Shown here in pieces: positions 1 through 10,175 of a DNA stretch of 10,175 nucleotides. The notes beneath the pieces are model-generated. The model was not told where the DNA came from. It ran no database searches and was given only the letters and a program-made list of their open reading frames with translations. Within the stretch, counting starts at the first letter, position 1; each line of letters starts with the position of its first letter. A program made the position numbers and the translations under genes. Source of the stretch: a virus; the UHGV virus genome UHGV-0126067, one strand, 5' to 3'.

Positions 1-27
1 GAGTTCAGACGTGTGCTCTTCCGATCT
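1..27. other. Illumina TruSeq-type adapter remnant at the contig start (not biological)
   Basis: GAGTTCAGACGTGTGCTCTTCCGATCT is the exact reverse complement of the start of the common Illumina adapter AGATCGGAAGAGCACACGTCTGAACTC. Phage sequence begins at position 28. Confidence 0.9.
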
Positions 28-1268
28 AGGCCGGTAAACTCTGGAACCAATACACTTGCGCCAGCCAGCGTGGTGAATCGCGTCCACGTCTTACCTGCTT
101 TGGCATCGAACTGGTAAGCCATGATGATGGTCGCCCCCTGCTCGGTAGTTGCCGTCATAACCTGCGGGCCCTGCCCGGTCGGGAATGCCAGCTTGCCGTA
201 CATCAGCTCTACAGAGCCCTCAGCAAAGAAGATGTTGGAAGCCGCAGCCTTCTTGTTGAGAATGGTGATCGCCGCGTTATTCGCCGGATTGGCGGTAACG
301 TTCTGGTAAGGAATAGACGGCGCATCAGCGTTGTTTGGTGGCAGAATTTTCGGGCTGATGGTAACGGTGGTGCCATTTACCGCCAGGACGCGGAATACCT
401 GCGACTGGCCTGTATCCACCTTCTTGATCATGTGGACACTATTAACGCCTGCGATAGTGAATGCATCACCAACAGCCAGCACGCCAGCAGTAGACACGGT
501 GATGTCGCCCTGACGGTTATCAGTAGGTGCGCCGTTGGAGTCCATTGCGGTAACTTTATGCGCTACTGCGCCACCAAGAGTTACGGCGGTGGCAGAACCT
601 GCCTTCATCGCGCCAGCATAATCAACACGGAAGCTGTCGAAGGATGCCACAGGTGGGATCTGAGCTTTCTCATACGCCGTCAGCGTTGCGCCAACTGCAT
701 ATGCGCGAGAGCCAAGCTCTTTAGCCAGGTCTTTGTAGTTGAACGGGTTGTAGAACGCTTTGCGCTGCCCACCCTGCGGCACACCAATAGAGAGCATCAT
801 TGCGTCAATGCCTGCAGATGCGTTCCAGAGGTCTTCGCCGAGAGTATTGCCGGTTGATGCCGAACCAATGGTGACCATGTTGGTAGCGCGGGCGGCCACC
901 TCATCGACGATCAGGTTATCAACCCACGCTGCCAGCTGACGACCCGCCGCTTTACCAGCTTGCTCCTTATGCCATGGATCGCGCATTTCTTTTGCGTCCA
1001 GCTCGTAGATAACGTTTTCTGGCTCGCGGAAACGCACAGGTACCTGACGCTGAACGAGTGAGTTTGCAGTTGCTGCGGTCAGATCTAGGCCGCTAACGGT
1101 TTTCAGATGGTAACCTTGAGGGCGATAAACTACGTCGCCTGCGCGTTGCATTTCAGTGTCGCCCGGGCGGAACTTGCTGCACTCACGGGATACTACGTTT
1201 GATGCCTCGAATCCATCAATGACGTTTTCAAATAGGATTTCAAGGTCTTTAGTTAACTGATTAGGCAT
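28..1268 (-). CDS. Major capsid (coat) protein, P22-like; 3' end truncated by the contig/adapter boundary
   Basis: ATG at 1268-1266 preceded by GGAG about 10 nt upstream. Hand translation gives MPNQLTKDLEILFENVIDGFEAS... and stays open for about 413 codons into the adapter. It lies immediately downstream of the scaffold gene, as in the P22 order 3-2-1-8-5, and has coat-like size. It is absent from the ORF track only because no stop codon lies in the window. Confidence 0.8.
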
Positions 1269-1288
1269 ACTTTTTTAGCTCCGATGGA

Positions 1289-2185
1289 TTATTTTTTAGC
1301 TTTATTCTTCGCCGCTCGGTATGCGGTGTAATCACCGGTGGCGCGCGCTTTTTCGAGAAGTTTGTCGAGATTATTAATTGCAGCGCCATTGCTCCCTTTA
1401 ACCTCAGGAGTGGTAGCGGCTGTTGTTTTTGCTTTAGGCATGATTCTGGCCTTTGATTCGATACGTTCCAGCAGACGACCAATTGCTACGGGGTTGGTAG
1501 CTTCTGCCAGTTGCTTGCGCAGTTCAGCGTTGCGACCAAGCGCCAGAACAACGATTTCCGGCTTCTCTGACTCAAACAGGATCGAGTTTTGTGTCTCGAT
1601 GGGGATTTCCTCGAGTACGGCCTGCTCAGCTTCCTGATAGCCAGGAACTTTGAGAGCCTTAACACGTTGCTGATATTTGGATAATCGCTGTTGATAGGCA
1701 GCCTGAAGCTCCTGCTCCTTCTGCTTGCGAGCCATCTCCTGTTGCTGGTACTTGCCGTTATCCTCTGCCCACTTAGCCATGCGTTGCTGGTAGATTTCTT
1801 CATCGAAACCGATGTCCTCATCGTCCAGTTTTGGCATTCGCGGTGGTTGAGTGATTACCGGCTGCTGCTCGACGGGTTTCTGAGACTGACGCATCAGCTC
1901 TTTCAGCTCGCGGTCTTTCTCTTTAATCGTCTTGCGCAGGTGTTTTACCAGTCCATGCTCTGCGCTATCTTCGCTGGTTGGCGAATCCAGCTTTTCGTCA
2001 CCAAAGTAGAATTCCTGTTCTGATTCGTCGTCATCAGTTTCAGTAGCTTCCTCTGCATCATTGCCAGAGGACTCACTGCCATCTTCTGTTTCGACTTCTT
2101 CAGCCAGTTCGACATCATCAGGAATCTGCTCTGACGCGTCGGTTTCGATTTCAACTTCTGGTGTGTTTTCTGCCATCTGTTCCAT
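1289..2185 (-). CDS. Scaffolding protein (P22 gp8-like)
   Basis: 298 aa with a strongly acidic N-terminal third (DDVELAEEVETEDGSESSGNDAEEATETDDDESEQE), a Q/K/E-rich helical middle and a basic C-terminal segment (...GDYTAYRAAKNKAKK) resembling the coat-binding helix-turn-helix of P22 scaffold. Sits between portal and coat. RBS AGGGG lies upstream of ATG 2185. Confidence 0.8.
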   Translation of the reverse strand: MEQMAENTPEVEIETDASEQIPDDVELAEEVETEDGSESSGNDAEEATETDDDESEQEFYFGDEKLDSPTSEDSAEHGLVKHLRKTIKEKDRELKELMRQSQKPVEQQPVITQPPRMPKLDDEDIGFDEEIYQQRMAKWAEDNGKYQQQEMARKQKEQELQAAYQQRLSKYQQRVKALKVPGYQEAEQAVLEEIPIETQNSILFESEKPEIVVLALGRNAELRKQLAEATNPVAIGRLLERIESKARIMPKAKTTAATTPEVKGSNGAAINNLDKLLEKARATGDYTAYRAAKNKAKK

Positions 2186-2275: not shown

Positions 2276-4480
2276 TTACTGCTGTGGTTGTTGCTGAGTT
2301 GATTTTTGCAGGATGCTGCTGATGTCCATGCGCTGCGCATGGCCCTGTGCCTGACTTTTCAGGACAAGCTCTGCATCAGCACGGGCATTATCTCCTTGCT
2401 GTTGCTGGAACTGTCCGAGCAGTTTCAGCGCCTCACGGATATCAGATTTTTGCTGGCTATCGGCAGATGCGAGGATTTTCACAACATTTGCCGCAGCAAC
2501 CTGAGCATCCGTCTGTGCCTGGAATGCTTTAACCTGAATGGCTGCTTGTTCGTTCTGCGCTTTCTGCAATTCAGCCTGACCAGCAAGAAGCTGACCTTGC
2601 GCAGCAACCATAGCCGGATCTGGCTGACTGGCCTGTTGTTGTTTCGCCTGCTCAACCATCTGCTGTTCTTCTGGTGTTCTCGGCTTAATAACGCCAGACA
2701 GAAGCAACTGATTGCGGTTGTATTCTTTAAGGTCGTCCATCCCTTCGCCGTCCATATTGTCGAGAATCATCGACGATACAAGGTCATGCTTCGGCGTTCC
2801 TGGCGGGATAAGTGCCAGCATGGAAAGCAACGACTTAACCGTTGCATCACGGCGAGTAGCGAACGACTGACCGACATCGACAGTCACTTCATAGTTACCC
2901 TGCGAAAGGTCGTTAAGCGCGATAACCTTCCCTGTCTGACGGTCAACCACTTCACCAGTCATCAGCGCCACGTCATCGCTGCCATCCTCATTAACGATGC
3001 GCATTGGCGTATCGCTGCCATAGACTTCACGAGCCATAGAAAGCCACACGACGCCAGCACGGCGCATGGATTTAGCCATGTTGTCCATGTAGATATAGGA
3101 CTGCGTGTCCATCCGGTTAAAGATGCTATCAACGGTATCGGTAGCGACGTTGCTCGGCATGTTCTCAAGCTGCGACGCACCTGTAATTTGCTGAATAGCC
3201 GTTCCGGTGTACTGCAATAGCCCGGCAAGAGCAGGAGGCATTTGTGTCGGAGGTGTCCAGCCAGCAACCTGAGCCTCTGAAATGACCGTTCCGTTTTTGT
3301 CCTTCTTGCTGGTCATGGGAAGAACTGCAGGTCTTTTCTTATTCCTCTCTGCCCAGTGATTCATTAATGGACCGGGAATGAAATCAACATCCACGATAGG
3401 AATGCCATCACCGCCAGCCTGAGTAGCATTATCTGCAATCATGGAAACCATCAGGTTCTCAAGACGCTGTGCATCCATCGCTTTTGCTGCGTGGCCTTCG
3501 ATTCGCTCCTGATTATCAACAAATGAACGACGCCCATATACCGGGATGAGAGGAATATGTTCGCCCGGAATACGCTTCGGTTCTTCCAGCCATTCAGCGC
3601 CAGACAGAAGACCGCAATAAACTCGGCGTTTCTTCACCGTTCGCTCGCCAATCAGTTCGAATGCACCATCGGTCAGCTCGTCGACAATATCTTTGATTTG
3701 CTCTTCATCATAGATTGCCGTTTCTCCGCTGACAGGGTTACGCCATGCTGTGAGCTTCACCTTCTCTATGCGGACTTCGTAGTAGCGTCCAACATAGATG
3801 GCATCAGGCGTTGACCAGTCATATTGAGTACCAGTGTCATCACGAGAAAGACTTGCCGCGATGGAATCAGGGTATTCAGCCTCGAACGCTTTATGCGTCA
3901 TGGAGAACATTTCCATAGCCCACATAGCATCAGAGCGGTCATATTGCTTGCTGTCCTGATCGAAGAAAACGCATGTCGCTGGGTCGTAAACAGGAAGAAG
4001 GCTGATGCGTCGCTGCTCGTTACTCGGATCCATTTCATCTTCGTAATCGGCACACATGCGGAAACAACCGAATCCGCCCGTTACAGCATCATCAAATGCG
4101 TTATCACACGCTTCGCCACCGGATGTTTCCTGATAGTCAGCGCGGAATTTGCCGTTCATCTTTTCGGCTAACGCTTCCGATGCCTTATCGTCCTTAGGCC
4201 TGAATTTAACGCTGATGCGATTCTGTCGATACTCGCCAATGATGCGATCACATTCACGGGCAATCTTATTCAGTTCAAAGCGCGGGTAATGCTCAAACCT
4301 GCCTTCATCAAATGAGTAACCAGCGTTTGTGCTGCCTTCCCACTGTGCGCCGGACACCCGGACGAAACGTTGAGCCTCAATAATCTGCTCACGCATATCC
4401 TTCGTTGCTGACCAGGCATTATCAAAGTTGCACAGCACCTTGCGATGCCAGTCAGTCATCTTTCTATCATCAGCCATCAT
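2276..4480 (-). CDS. Portal protein (P22 gp1-like) with long helical C-terminal extension
   Basis: About 734 aa. Contains segments characteristic of P22-type portals as I recall them (GEHIPLIPVYG, KPRTPEEQQ, DPAMVAAQGQLLAGQAELQKAQNEQ) and a Q/A-rich C-terminus. The ORF track starts at a TTG (4492); I prefer ATG 4480, which overlaps the terminase TGA stop (ATGA). Confidence 0.93.
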   Translation of the reverse strand: MMADDRKMTDWHRKVLCNFDNAWSATKDMREQIIEAQRFVRVSGAQWEGSTNAGYSFDEGRFEHYPRFELNKIARECDRIIGEYRQNRISVKFRPKDDKASEALAEKMNGKFRADYQETSGGEACDNAFDDAVTGGFGCFRMCADYEDEMDPSNEQRRISLLPVYDPATCVFFDQDSKQYDRSDAMWAMEMFSMTHKAFEAEYPDSIAASLSRDDTGTQYDWSTPDAIYVGRYYEVRIEKVKLTAWRNPVSGETAIYDEEQIKDIVDELTDGAFELIGERTVKKRRVYCGLLSGAEWLEEPKRIPGEHIPLIPVYGRRSFVDNQERIEGHAAKAMDAQRLENLMVSMIADNATQAGGDGIPIVDVDFIPGPLMNHWAERNKKRPAVLPMTSKKDKNGTVISEAQVAGWTPPTQMPPALAGLLQYTGTAIQQITGASQLENMPSNVATDTVDSIFNRMDTQSYIYMDNMAKSMRRAGVVWLSMAREVYGSDTPMRIVNEDGSDDVALMTGEVVDRQTGKVIALNDLSQGNYEVTVDVGQSFATRRDATVKSLLSMLALIPPGTPKHDLVSSMILDNMDGEGMDDLKEYNRNQLLLSGVIKPRTPEEQQMVEQAKQQQASQPDPAMVAAQGQLLAGQAELQKAQNEQAAIQVKAFQAQTDAQVAAANVVKILASADSQQKSDIREALKLLGQFQQQQGDNARADAELVLKSQAQGHAQRMDISSILQKSTQQQPQQ

Positions 4481-5973
4481 CCAACTCCGCAAGGTATGTT
4501 GTAGCTTGAGTAATCAATCTCTTTAGGATCTTTGATGTCTCGCATCTGTATTGCAAAACGCCTCATCATGTAGCCATAGCGAACAGCAGAAAGGATGTCG
4601 TCATTTAGCTTGACGATCTTCCCGTTCTCATCGCGGTGATACAGACGAAACTCTTCAAAGAATGGCTCGCAGGTGTTAAATACCTTGAAACGACCGTCGA
4701 GCATCATGTCGCGTATCTCTGCTATCCCGGGTTCGACCGCATTACCTCCATCAGGCCATGTTGCATGATCTGGCAACATGTCGAACCCAGCTTCGGCGTA
4801 TTGTTCCTTGAGCTGAGCGCCGCCTCCCTTTTCGTGCTGATGCCCGTCATGAGGCCAAGCCGTAGGGGTGTTTTTGCTCCATGCTTTAACAGCACTCCAT
4901 GCCTCTGTCGCCTTCTTCTGTTTGGCCTTCCAGACGCGAGAAAGATAAATCACGTCCTCGTCTTTATCCCACCAAAGCTGGATATGTGCCTGTGGGTGAT
5001 CCCATCCGAAGTCCATTGCATTGATGACGTAGAAGTGATCAGGACACTCGAACGGCTGACACTTAATCGTCTCTTCCGGTATCTGGAAGATTCGACCGCT
5101 ACCCATCGTAGGAATACCGCGAGCACGCGCCTCTCTCTCGTGCTCGGGATAGGATGCGATGATTTGCTCTTTCTGCTCGTCGGTATAGTGCTCAGCATCA
5201 TAGATGGTCATGTTGACCACTTTCTGCGACTTGCTGGGATTCTTCAGGAACTTGGTAACAACGTCAGACATCCCCATCAGCGGGGTAAACGTCAGAATTG
5301 AGAATTGCCCGTATTTGTTGGTACGGGTAAGACCTTCGCCATAAATGCTGTATGGTGGCTCTTCGTCAAACCACACGCCGTGGATTGTGTCACCCTGCCA
5401 GCGAGCACGGCCTTGAGAGTATGGTTTGAAGTAGCAGATTGAAATGCCATCTTCAACGCCATCAGCCGTGTGATGCTTAACCAGAAGATGATCAACAAGG
5501 TTCGGAAAGAAAGGAGACTTCTTCCAGCTAATGATGTCCTCTTTCGGTATGGAACCGTAGCCAGGCTCGTCATTCTCTTCGATACGACCGCACAGGATGC
5601 GTTGAGTCGTTTTGGTTACAGTCTCGTTTGTCTCGCCACCAATCCAAAAGACAACAGGCTCATAGAAACGCTTACCTTTCCACTCACCGCCATATTTACC
5701 ATCAGCAGGATAGCCTTTTGTGCCCGGATAACGCCCTGTAAGGTGAAACGCGACTTCAGCAGCACCAGTAAATGACTTACCAAGCTGGTTACCAGCCATA
5801 AAACATCGCTCTGGATAGTCATGTCCGGCGTCGATGAACTCACGCTGTTTGCTGTATGGCGTAAATTCATATAGCAGGTGTGTGTTCCGGTAGTTCTCTT
5901 CTTCTTCGAGTAGCTCGAGCAATTCGATTTGCTCTTCGTCGCTCAGGTTATCAAGAATCGCGTCCAGTTCCAC
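4477..5973 (-). CDS. terL: Terminase large subunit (P22 gp2-like)
   Basis: 498 aa with a Walker A-like motif AGNQLGKS near the N-terminus. Sits between small terminase and portal. The start is GTG at 5973 (no in-frame ATG before the Walker A) with AAGGAG about 10 nt upstream. Overlaps the 3' end of terS by 23 nt. Confidence 0.93.
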
Positions 5974-6439
5974 GGTTGAATAGCTCCTTGATACGAGAGC
6001 GCCGCTTATCGCGATCTCCCTTATCAGGTGTCACGTCTTCAACTTGCGACTGCTCTTTGAGGCCCAAATCACGGGCGATGATGTTAGCGTTGAGAAGGTC
6101 AGCGGCTGCGCCAGAGAATTTCTGATCGTAGATGATGTCTTCCGCTCGTGATGTGACGTCAGAAAAACCTTCCATTGACCGGAAGGTTCCCCATGTTTGC
6201 CTGGTGATATCAAGGAAGGTACACAATCCTGAAATAGTCATGGCTCGCATCTTAGGGACATTAGCCTTAATTATTTCTCCCTGATATGAAAATACCTTGC
6301 CCTCCCATAGCGGGTTATCATCAGCCCACTCGAAGTATTCACAACAAGCAGCCCACAGCGCCTCAGGCGATTCGAATTTAGGGTTTCGCCCATGACTACT
6401 GCGGGCCTCCCAAAATCGGTTGCCCTTTGGTGCTGCCAT
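5951..6439 (-). CDS. terS: Terminase small subunit (P22 gp3-like)
   Basis: 162 aa from ATG 6439. The N-terminus [38 protein letters not shown] and C-terminus ...[13 protein letters not shown] match my recollection of P22 gp3. ATG 6439 is preferred over ATG 6445 because the GAG of the RBS abuts the upstream ATG. Confidence 0.88.
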
Positions 6440-7078: not shown

Positions 7079-7572
7079 CCCGGCAGCCCTGGGATCGTAA
7101 TCTGCAGCTGGTTAGCAAGGGTGTTAATCTCAGCGACCAATACAGGCTTCGTATAACGCCATGCAGCAAGTCCTTGTCCGCAGAAGCTCGCCATGTCCTT
7201 CTTCTGGTCAAACTCATGGCACTTCATGTTGAGCTGCGCACTTAAGCTGTTGCGATGCTGAAGCTCTCCGGTGAAGTAGTCATCGAGGACCTTATAGGCT
7301 GCGTACTTGAACCCGGGGTTTAGCCATGCCGCATAATCGTATGCAACAAACTTCCCGCCATAGGTTCCGCCGTGTACGCCGCGGGCAGTGAAAACCACAG
7401 ATTCGTGGTTTTTCTCCAGCTCGGCCAGGAACTCTTTGGTCTGCTTGTTTCGCAGATAATGGTAAGGCGATTCAGCATCACTTTTGCCACTGGCTTTCCA
7501 CATATCGGTGAGGCAGATCATGCCGTCTTCCCCGACACGGATTGGTTGATTGAAGAGGGTTAATGATTTCAT
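7075..7572 (-). CDS. KilA-N domain protein (165 aa)
   Basis: From ATG 7572 the N-terminus MKSLTLFNQPIRVGEDGMICLTDMWKASGK... fits the KilA-N pattern found in phage antirepressor/Bro-type proteins. AAGG lies about 11 nt upstream. The ORF-track start at 7626 is a TTG with no better support. Confidence 0.7.
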   Translation of the reverse strand: MKSLTLFNQPIRVGEDGMICLTDMWKASGKSDAESPYHYLRNKQTKEFLAELEKNHESVVFTARGVHGGTYGGKFVAYDYAAWLNPGFKYAAYKVLDDYFTGELQHRNSLSAQLNMKCHEFDQKKDMASFCGQGLAAWRYTKPVLVAEINTLANQLQITIPGLPG

Positions 7573-7719: not shown

Positions 7720-7745
7720 ATAAAAAAGCCCCGCTATTGCGAGGC
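7720..7745 (-). terminator. Rho-independent terminator-like hairpin overlapping the Rz1 stop codon
   Basis: Minus strand reads GCCTCGC-AATA-GCGGGGC (7-bp stem with one G.U) followed by TTTTTTAT. Confidence 0.5.
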
Positions 7746-8057
7746 TCGTGATGATTCGATTTTCCTGATTGCCGCCTTATCCAGATTGCACTGCCCTAGC
7801 GCCGTATAGAGCTGAGCGTTCAACTCCAGACTTGCCTGCCACGTGAACGGAACCGCCATTCCGGGGATCGGCGTGTCTGCTGTCAGGTCAGCGCTTATCG
7901 GCACCACTGGGGATGGAACGTAAACTGTCTGCGTATTCCCGCAAGCTGTCAGCAGCGGCAGAAGGAACAAGCTGGTTAGCACACGGATCGCCTTCAAGCG
8001 CCTGCCTGATGTAGACAATGCGCGTCTCGCCTTTTTTGGCCAGTTCGTTCTTTGCAT
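7734..8057 (-). CDS. Rz1: Rz1-like o-spanin lipoprotein, overlapping the 3' half of Rz in another frame and extending past its stop
   Basis: Lipobox LLTAC-G preceded by a hydrophobic stretch (VLTSLFLLPLL). The mature part is proline-rich (VYVPSPVVPISADLTADTPIPGMAVP) and has no Asp at +2. Start is uncertain: ATG 8057 gives a long n-region; an internal TTG at 7997, preceded by AGGCAGG, gives a textbook signal peptide MKAIRVLTSLFLLPLLTAC. Confidence 0.65.
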   Translation of the reverse strand: MQRTNWPKKARRALSTSGRRLKAIRVLTSLFLLPLLTACGNTQTVYVPSPVVPISADLTADTPIPGMAVPFTWQASLELNAQLYTALGQCNLDKAAIRKIESSRASQ

Positions 8058-8274
8058 TCTGGGTAGCCTGTGAGATGTCGCGGATGAGGTTCATCGTGGT
8101 GATCACGTTTCTGGTGATCGCCTCCGATGTGTCTGCCCTGACCGTCGCCTTATCGCGCTGGTCTTTGTAGGTGATGGCGTTGTCGCGGTAGTGGTTTACG
8201 AATAAAACCAGCACGCCGATTAACGCCAGCACCAGCAACTGTAGCCAGTAACGCTTAACCAGCGCGCCAATCAC
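7888..8274 (-). CDS. Rz: Rz-like i-spanin (128 aa) with N-terminal transmembrane segment
   Basis: N-terminal TMD (WLQLLVLALIGVLVLFV) followed by VNHYRDNAITYKDQRDK, which closely matches my recollection of lambda Rz (VNHYRDNAITYKAQRDK). GTG start at 8274 overlaps the endolysin TGA stop (GTGA). Confidence 0.8.
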   Translation of the reverse strand: MIGALVKRYWLQLLVLALIGVLVLFVNHYRDNAITYKDQRDKATVRADTSEAITRNVITTMNLIRDISQATQNAKNELAKKGETRIVYIRQALEGDPCANQLVPSAAADSLREYADSLRSIPSGADKR

Positions 8275-8711: not shown

Positions 8712-9015
8712 TCTTCATCCCCGTCAGACGTTCCCAGAAATAGGTCAGAGCCACGGAGCCCATCGCCCCGCTAATGCCTGACGTAACCAGAATCATGTAA
8801 AGGCTCAGCCCACTTTCAACGCTGATCAGTCCACCAATGAGACCGGTAAAGCCGGACACTGCAATTTGTGCCAGCGCATTAATCCAGCTCCAGGTGGCTT
8901 TGTTCTGCTTAACGTCAATAAGGTATCGGACCAGGCCGCCCCAGCATGACAGAGCAAGGACAATCAGCCATGACACTCCGGCAATGCTTTCTTTATCTTG
9001 CATACGTTTAGCCAT
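8698..9015 (-). CDS. Holin, class I (three predicted TMDs), possible dual-start holin/antiholin
   Basis: 105 aa with three hydrophobic segments (SIAGVSWLIVLALSCWGGLV; WSWINALAQIAVSGFTGLIGGLI; LSLYMILVTSGISGAMGSVALTYF) and a charged C-terminal tail. N-terminus is M-A-K-R-M. Strong SD GGAGGTGA sits immediately upstream of ATG 9015. First gene of the lysis cassette. Confidence 0.8.
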   Translation of the reverse strand: MAKRMQDKESIAGVSWLIVLALSCWGGLVRYLIDVKQNKATWSWINALAQIAVSGFTGLIGGLISVESGLSLYMILVTSGISGAMGSVALTYFWERLTGMKNANQ

Positions 9016-9137
9016 ATCACCTCCGAAAGAACGGGGTGCTGTTTGTAGTAAGGGATCAGGCCCTCGGGACGATTTAACAAGAAGGCATGTCGATGATGGT
9101 TCCCGGGACCTTAATATTTACCTCAAAGAGGCATATT

Positions 9138-9734
9138 TTAATTTTGGCAGCGTGGTTGGCTCACTTTGAGAGACTCGATCTTCTTGATAAGCCCTCTGTG
9201 GAGCTGTGGATGCAACTGATCGCAGAGACTCTTATAGCCATGCGCAAGACTCATTTTTTCATTGAACCAAGCGAGATGGGCAAGGTATGGGTCTTCGAAC
9301 ATACCTAAATGCTTGTTCTTACCATTAACCTTTATATCGGCCTGAAATTTTGTTGAGCCTTTTTTTAGGCAAACGCCAATGGGATAATCACCCCTCCGAG
9401 CACCCCTTGAGGTAACAAAGCTATTGAGCGCCTGCGGGATAAAGATGCATGTTTTACTGGAATAAACTTTGTTACCGGGGAAAAGGAGATCCTTATCAAG
9501 CTCACACCCAGGAATGTATTTCGCGTCGTAAAACTTTTTAAATTCGCTAAAAAGATGCCACTCTTCATCAACAACACATCCTTCATAGCTAGGCCTGTAA
9601 CAGACCCCCTCCCCATAACATCTCTTAAGCATCCCATGCCAAACTCTATATGCTCTTATTTTCTTCCCATCCACAAAAACAGGATGCACATCTAACTTTC
9701 CAACTCCGAAAATAAGACTTTCATTTGATTTCAT
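9138..9734 (-). CDS. Accessory (moron-type) protein, 198 aa, with AP2-like C-terminal signature; function unknown
   Basis: ATG at 9734 (MKSNESLIFGVGKLDVHPVF...) with AAAGG upstream; the ORF-track start at 9821 is a TTG inside an inverted repeat. GC is visibly lower than in flanking genes. C-terminal segment GVCLKKGSTKFQADIKVNGKNKHLGMFEDPYLAHLAWF fits an AP2-type pattern. N-terminal domain is Cys/Trp-rich (WHGMLKRCY...CVVDEEWHLFSEF) and unassigned. Confidence 0.65.
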   Translation of the reverse strand: MKSNESLIFGVGKLDVHPVFVDGKKIRAYRVWHGMLKRCYGEGVCYRPSYEGCVVDEEWHLFSEFKKFYDAKYIPGCELDKDLLFPGNKVYSSKTCIFIPQALNSFVTSRGARRGDYPIGVCLKKGSTKFQADIKVNGKNKHLGMFEDPYLAHLAWFNEKMSLAHGYKSLCDQLHPQLHRGLIKKIESLKVSQPRCQN

Positions 9735-9750
9735 GGTTGCGTTTACCTTT

Positions 9751-9837
9751 CTTTGAAATGAACCTTTGCCGCAATGGAAATCAGCCCGTCGAGGCTCGCC
9801 AGCACTAACTGACTTCCTCAAAGGCTCATTTCAAAGG
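9751..9837. repeat. 18-19 bp inverted repeat (arms 9751-9768 and 9819-9837) in the leader of the accessory ORF
   Basis: Plus-strand arm ctttgaaatgaacctttg against the reverse complement of caaaggctcatttcaaagg: one DNA mismatch, which is a G.U pair in the minus-strand RNA. A 50-nt spacer holds a small inner hairpin (AGCC-TCGACG-GGCT). Confidence 0.75.
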
Positions 9838-9877
9838 GTGTGGTTCGACGTGGTTAGAGGCGCATTGCGGTGCGCTG

Positions 9878-9904
9878 AAATAAAAAAGCCAGCGACAGGC
9901 TGGC
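9878..9904 (-). terminator. Rho-independent terminator
   Basis: Minus strand reads GCCAGC-CTGTC-GCTGGC (perfect 6-bp stem, 5-nt loop) followed by TTTTTTATTT. Confidence 0.7.
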
Positions 9905-10120
9905 AATGTGAGGGTAAGGCAATGTCGGCTCTCTGGCCGAAGGGTCCCAGGTAGTGGGTTTAGTTTGTGGTGGCCGGCGCTGCTATCCGGCATTCACGGC
10001 TATCGCTTTACGACGCCATCAGGACATTCACCACAACGAGGATCGCTTTGCCGTGCCAGGGAAATGTACCTGGTCTCACCGGGATGCCGTCACATACTCA
10101 AAGCGATTTCCGTTATGCAG

Positions 10121-10153
10121 AAATGAAAAAGCCACCGGCGTTAACCAGTGGCT
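10121..10153 (-). terminator. Rho-independent terminator, candidate late-operon tR'-like terminator
   Basis: Minus strand reads AGCCACTGG-TTAACG-CCGGTGGCT (9-bp stem with one G.U) followed by TTTTTCATTT. Confidence 0.65.
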
Positions 10154-10175
10154 CTAAATTATTGGTGATGGCTCA

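Follow-up and report, generated by a model that had tools for sequence, protein, structure and literature searches.

The first 27 nucleotides of the window, by which we mean the whole 10,175-nt stretch of viral DNA analysed here, are synthetic Illumina adapter and not phage DNA. The left end that they form is a library and assembly artefact of a known, documented kind, and it has no biological content. We are close to certain that it is explained by untrimmed adapter read-through that was kept as the end of a contig, and read-through carried into the contig is a better wording for it than an error of the assembler as such. The window itself represents late-region DNA from a P22-like phage or prophage of the E. 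coli type, similar to CUS-3/Sf101, and the artefact has cut short its major coat protein gene.

On the + strand, window 1-27 reads GAGTTCAGACGTGTGCTCTTCCGATCT, and it is identical at 27 of 27 bases to positions 8-34, the last 27 nt, of the 34-nt TruSeq read-2 primer GTGACTGGAGTTCAGACGTGTGCTCTTCCGATCT. Read on the - strand, the same bases give AGATCGGAAGAGCACACGTCTGAACTC, which agrees exactly with AGATCGGAAGAGCACACGTCTGAACTCCAGTCA over the first 27 nt of the latter. GTGACTGGAGTTCAGACGTGTGCTCTTCCGATCT is the TruSeq read-2 primer site and AGATCGGAAGAGCACACGTCTGAACTCCAGTCA the indexed adapter; AGATCGGAAGAGCACACGTCTGAACTC is what appears at the 3' end of read 1 if the insert is short and sequencing carries on into the indexed adapter. 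The adapter sequences are partly corroborated, because the forward-specific part of the adapter, CACACGTCTGAACTCCAGTCA, is quoted in a published survey of adapter contamination (PMC11536531; BMC Genomics 2024) and because GTGACTG precedes most of the copies of the 27-mer found in IMG/VR, which are described below. The orientation of the 27-mer in the window is that of an adapter joined to an insert: its insert-proximal end (…CCGATCT) faces inward, with coat sequence directly after it. Base 27 (T on the + strand, A on the - strand) corresponds to the A-tail/T-overhang, and is likewise non-genomic. The 27-mer is present once in the window; other Illumina and Nextera oligos of at least 14 nt were sought across the whole window and none was found, and a search for adapter at the right end showed that end to be clean.

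The point at which genuine sequence stops is given by closely related contigs. Six other contigs carry exactly the same scaffolding protein (298 aa, encoded at window 1289..2185 on the - strand, next to the coat gene), and this exact match was the handle by which the siblings were found. Four of them, L003, L004, L005 and L007, hold the complete form of the coat gene, with 419 codons followed by TAA. From the coat ATG to window base 28 these four contigs show 0 mismatches to the window over 1,241 nt, and all four diverge from it at base 27 and beyond. In BLAST comparisons of the whole window with its siblings, identity was 100% over 6,897 nt for L003, 99.98% for L004, 99.85% for L007 and 99.72% for L005, and wherever an alignment extends to the left end, it breaks off at window base 28. 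The adapter differs from the sibling sequence at 20 of its 27 bases, base 27 among them. More distant relatives give the same boundary, since all 18 of the E. coli prophage matches obtained by megablast, which lie in complete E. coli genomes and are about 88% identical in the coat gene, begin at query position 28. With an exact match over 27 of 27 bases and a break in homology at base 28, the initial annotation was right to read the first 27 nt as Illumina adapter.

Could genuine genomic sequence simply resemble the adapter by chance? This reading is refuted, and we give it practically no credence at all. The probability of an exact 27-mer at a fixed position is 4^-27, or 5.6e-17; dinucleotide-preserving shuffles of the window (n = 200) contained 0 matches to the 27-mer, even with 3 mismatches allowed; and the orthologous position in the four siblings and the 18 prophages is occupied by unrelated sequence that encodes the conserved C-terminus VLANQ*.

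In the siblings, the genuine 3' end of the coat gene reads ...ACC GGC CTG GTA CTG GCT AAC CAG TAA, and the genuine sequence at this site includes …GGCCTGGTACTGGCTAACCAGTAA. Beyond the coat stop codon, both the siblings and the E. coli prophage L001 continue with a terminator hairpin, GC-rich and with a T-run, a 74-aa ORF, P22 gp4, gp10 and the tail genes. As a separate observation outside the window, the 74-aa ORF of L007 contains a tandem hexamer, GCCAGA x4, at about 7350-7370 of that contig, just before the adapter remnant with which L007 ends.

What remains of the coat gene in the window is a 3'-truncated gene for a P22-type major coat protein at 28..1268 on the - strand, comprising 413 complete codons and the CT of Leu414. 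Its product matches PF11651 with an E value of 2.5e-70 (237.8 bits against a gathering cut-off of 24), and the match extends over residues 2-412 of the protein and positions 2-417 of the 423 in the profile. The reading frame, whose ATG is at 1268, has met no stop by base 1 and runs off the contig through the adapter. As the initial annotation had stated, the ORF is thus open where it reaches the adapter and has been cut short; the lack of a stop codon is truncation, and no fault of the coat gene. The extent of the loss is smaller than that annotation had supposed. The 419-aa coat protein belongs to a 240-member cluster and is 419 aa long in 15 of 15 among the members listed. Residues 1-414 are fixed by the window because CTN encodes Leu whatever its third base, and what is missing is the five residues V-L-A-N-Q and the stop, or 19 nt when the third base of codon 414 is counted. 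The proposal that roughly the last 10-20 codons had been lost is therefore too high: comparison of coat length with homologs, the check that it called for, gives an allele of 419 aa of which 414 are determined. The larger estimate was probably derived from P22 gp5, which has 430 aa.

In place of the genuine C-terminus, the window offers a spurious extension of the reading frame at 1..29 on the - strand. It consists of codon 414, which reads CTA with a third base taken from the adapter and still encodes Leu, followed by D-R-K-S-T-R-L-N and 2 spare bases, so that the false tail, DRKSTRLN, amounts to eight adapter-derived codons without a stop. The warning that adapter codons must not be read as protein was well placed, for the siblings encode VLANQ* there. 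The public gene call on the window's contig (L006 6918-8183, equivalent to window 3-1268, - strand) is 422 aa long with the adapter residues included, and the false tail has therefore entered the gene table. The exact 422-aa adapter-extended product was looked up in a protein collection and was absent from it.

Because its homologs continue into the downstream genes, the left end of the window does not mark the terminus of a genome or the junction of a prophage. Among the relatives compared, none ends or changes partner at this position; the four contigs and the 18 prophages read through it and continue colinearly. Nor does the position look like an attachment junction, which would have bacterial DNA or a tRNA on one flank: both flanks consist of phage genes, a tRNA scan of the whole window returned 0 tRNA genes, and Rfam at gathering thresholds gave no match anywhere in the window. 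The end is an adapter junction, and two further statements of the initial annotation hold on these grounds, namely that the end is an artefact, and that any inference of pac, att or terminal repeats drawn from it is invalid.

A biological reading of the same end would make the 27/28 junction a real DNA end, for example a headful-packaging end ligated directly to adapter. Adapters do ligate to natural DNA ends, and the window contains packaging genes of the P22 type, with a GP3_package small terminase and a Terminase_6 large subunit. Packaging in P22 proceeds from the expected pac region towards the coat gene, which is a few kb further downstream. P22 headful ends are diffuse, however, and a fixed end inside the coat gene is not expected. 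Moreover, base 28 is passed without a break in four assemblies of the same phage, and the siblings carry adapter remnants at four other unrelated positions, as expected for random ends at low coverage. The two ends of the window also have no terminal repeat in common; no direct or inverted repeat was found between the two 300-nt ends, where the longest common words are 8-9 nt. A single contig end, for its part, cannot separate a sheared from a natural end. We therefore regard a real DNA end at the 27/28 junction as highly improbable, and we hold out equally little hope for the specific proposal that base 28 is no random shear point but a natural end, over-represented in packaged P22-like DNA as one of a headful series and captured by direct ligation of the adapter. 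Were that proposal true, phage packaging termini could be sought by way of the adapter-tipped contig ends of untrimmed assemblies.

The sibling remnants themselves are instructive. L004 begins with TCCGATCT, an 8-nt adapter remnant at L004 1-8, after which genuine sequence takes over at a point within the small terminase gene that corresponds to window 6146; at its other end (8866-8875) it closes with a 10-nt adapter remnant, AGATCGGAAG. The end of L007 (7371-7388) is an 18-nt remnant, AGATCGGAAGAGCACACG. Both contigs come from the same ENA series as the contig of the window (accessions ERZ783827 and ERZ783417, against ERZ783353). Remnants at other sites and of other lengths point to a systematic trimming problem and to random fragment ends.

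Untrimmed read-through, the explanation that we prefer, would have produced the left end in the following way. The reads would have been assembled without full adapter trimming, and at least one read 1 would have been longer than the library fragment it came from, with the end of its insert at window base 28. Past the insert, this read would have continued over the A-tail and into TruSeq indexed adapter sequence (AGATCGGAAGAGCACACGTCTGAACTC...). The window is the whole of the contig NODE_116_length_10175_cov_7.62 (ENA ERZ783353), whose name records a k-mer coverage of about 7.6, and at such coverage there may have been no genuine read path past base 28, in which case the adapter tip would have been kept as the contig end. 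The 27 nt stand in place of the genuine G GTA CTG GCT AAC CAG TAA, and the coat ORF runs open off the contig with its eight false codons. The sequences show directly that the 27 nt are adapter and that the break falls at 27/28; they also show how the genuine gene continues, how much of it is lost and how the reading frame is falsely extended. Short-insert read-through and thin coverage are what we infer to be the cause of the stop.

A variant of this explanation supposes that adapter k-mers formed a hub in the assembly graph, which broke the contig despite the presence of genuine reads across 27/28. In its favour, several of the sibling contigs also end in adapter, and trimming adapter-bearing ends and re-joining contigs improves contiguity (PMC11536531), a gain that fits adapters breaking contigs. 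At the same time, the remnants are of varying length (8, 10, 18 and 27 nt) and do not correspond to one k-mer size, so that tips limited by the ends of reads fit better, and a coverage of about 7.6 makes real gaps plausible. On balance we consider a graph hub unlikely, while allowing it a far from negligible share of the probability. The idea that the length of 27 nt in the window is the k-mer size of the assembler is likewise disfavoured by the siblings, whose remnants measure 8, 10 and 18 nt.

The artefact extends well beyond this series of contigs. A scan of IMG/VR for the 27-mer found it in at least 120 unrelated viral contigs (L010-L129). Among the IMG/VR matches listed, 109 of 123 occurrences lie no more than 100 nt from a contig end and point inward, GTGACTG precedes the 27-mer in 89 of the 93 that have enough upstream sequence, and the 123 occurrences are followed by 122 distinct 10-mers. 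In two of these IMG/VR contigs, L051 and L057, the 27-mer stands at both ends, an arrangement that could mimic inverted terminal repeats. In phage databases, megablast of window 1-1400 against 50,697 phage records gave a single kind of match, adapter to adapter, and no relative of the coat body at 85% identity or more. The only phage-database match to window 1-31 is Mycobacterium phage Kashi_RDG1 (ON687736.1), in which about 86 nt (bases 1-86), made up of the indexed adapter and then its inverted partner, stand ahead of the first annotated gene.

In the remainder of the window, the portal gene (2276-4477), the large terminase gene (4477-5973) and the small terminase gene (5951-6439) lie upstream of the coat gene in transcription order, and further to the right come a lysis cassette and a gene for an HNH endonuclease. 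Several features of this region deserve mention in their own right. There is a mosaic joint inside the coat gene, at about 1102-1138. Rightward from about 1102 or 1138, matches of 93-97% occur in many phages and prophages, in a block that comprises the first 45-55 coat codons together with the scaffold, portal and terminase genes. Relatives of the coat body (28 to about 1100) reach only about 88%; they occur in 18 of the 5,426 complete E. coli genomes, and megablast gave none from the phage collection. In the lysis region, a gene for an Rz-like spanin (PHROG 214, E 1.5e-34) overlaps an Rz1/LysC-like ORF in another frame (PF23793, E 5.9e-14), the two occupying 7734-8057 and 7888-8274 on the - strand; such an overlap is usual for spanin pairs, and this one is unremarkable.

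Near the right end lies a free-standing HNH homing endonuclease gene at 9138-9734 on the - strand (longest ORF 9138-9821), which matches PHROG 953 with an E value of 1e-70 and has no Pfam match at E <= 0.01. It is flanked by terminator-like hairpins on one side and by the holin gene on the other, in a stretch whose GC content falls to 0.43. The segment that holds it, window 8900-10175, is rare in complete E. coli genomes, in which no place covers 80% or more of it, and the same Q-to-holin position in other lambdoid prophages is taken up by different cargo or by a different HNH_3 gene. Two terminator-like hairpins with T-runs on the coding strand are found near the right end, at 10128-10155 and 9888-9904 (both on the - strand), and the interval 9000-10175 has 5 such sites against 1.3 expected in shuffles. 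No Rfam family was matched by the right-end hairpins; their location suggests that they may be tR'-type terminators of the late operon, in which case the antiterminator Q gene preceding them would be situated outside the window, past its right end.

The significance of the adapter tip is one of data hygiene only. Bases 1-27 are to be trimmed from the contig, and the coat gene is properly annotated as 3'-partial, complement(28..1268), with 414 of 419 residues determined and DRKSTRLN dropped. The left end says nothing about packaging ends, attachment sites or terminal repeats.

Compared with known phages, the window has the same gene order, terS-terL-portal-scaffold-coat, as P22-type systems, and its coat protein has the full-length Pfam match (PF11651) that is shared by P22-type coats, including P22 gp5 and the CUS-3/Sf101-like E. 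coli allele. The allele in the window has 419 aa, unlike P22 gp5, and is present here without its last five residues and stop. As an artefact, too, the window has close counterparts. Kashi_RDG1 holds the same 27-mer with the full GTGACTG prefix, in a GenBank record designated a complete genome; there it forms part of a longer, inverted structure resembling an adapter dimer in a finished record, whereas the window has only 27 nt of adapter, at the tip of a draft contig. That phage genome and the at least 120 IMG/VR contigs with the same oligo agree with the survey cited above, in which adapter contamination at contig extremities was found to be widespread in public microbial assemblies, with reverse-complement adapters concentrated at contig beginnings (PMC11536531). 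The artefact described in that survey involves oligos of the same family, in which AGATCGGAAGAGC precedes the forward-specific CACACGTCTGAACTC…, with the same geometry and the same consequence, a truncated contig with spurious terminal sequence. There is no difference of substance between the two: the window is one instance of that artefact, on a metagenome contig with a phage late operon, in which, as it happens, the adapter cuts into the coat gene 19 nt short of its end and in doing so gives the coat protein a false C-terminal extension.
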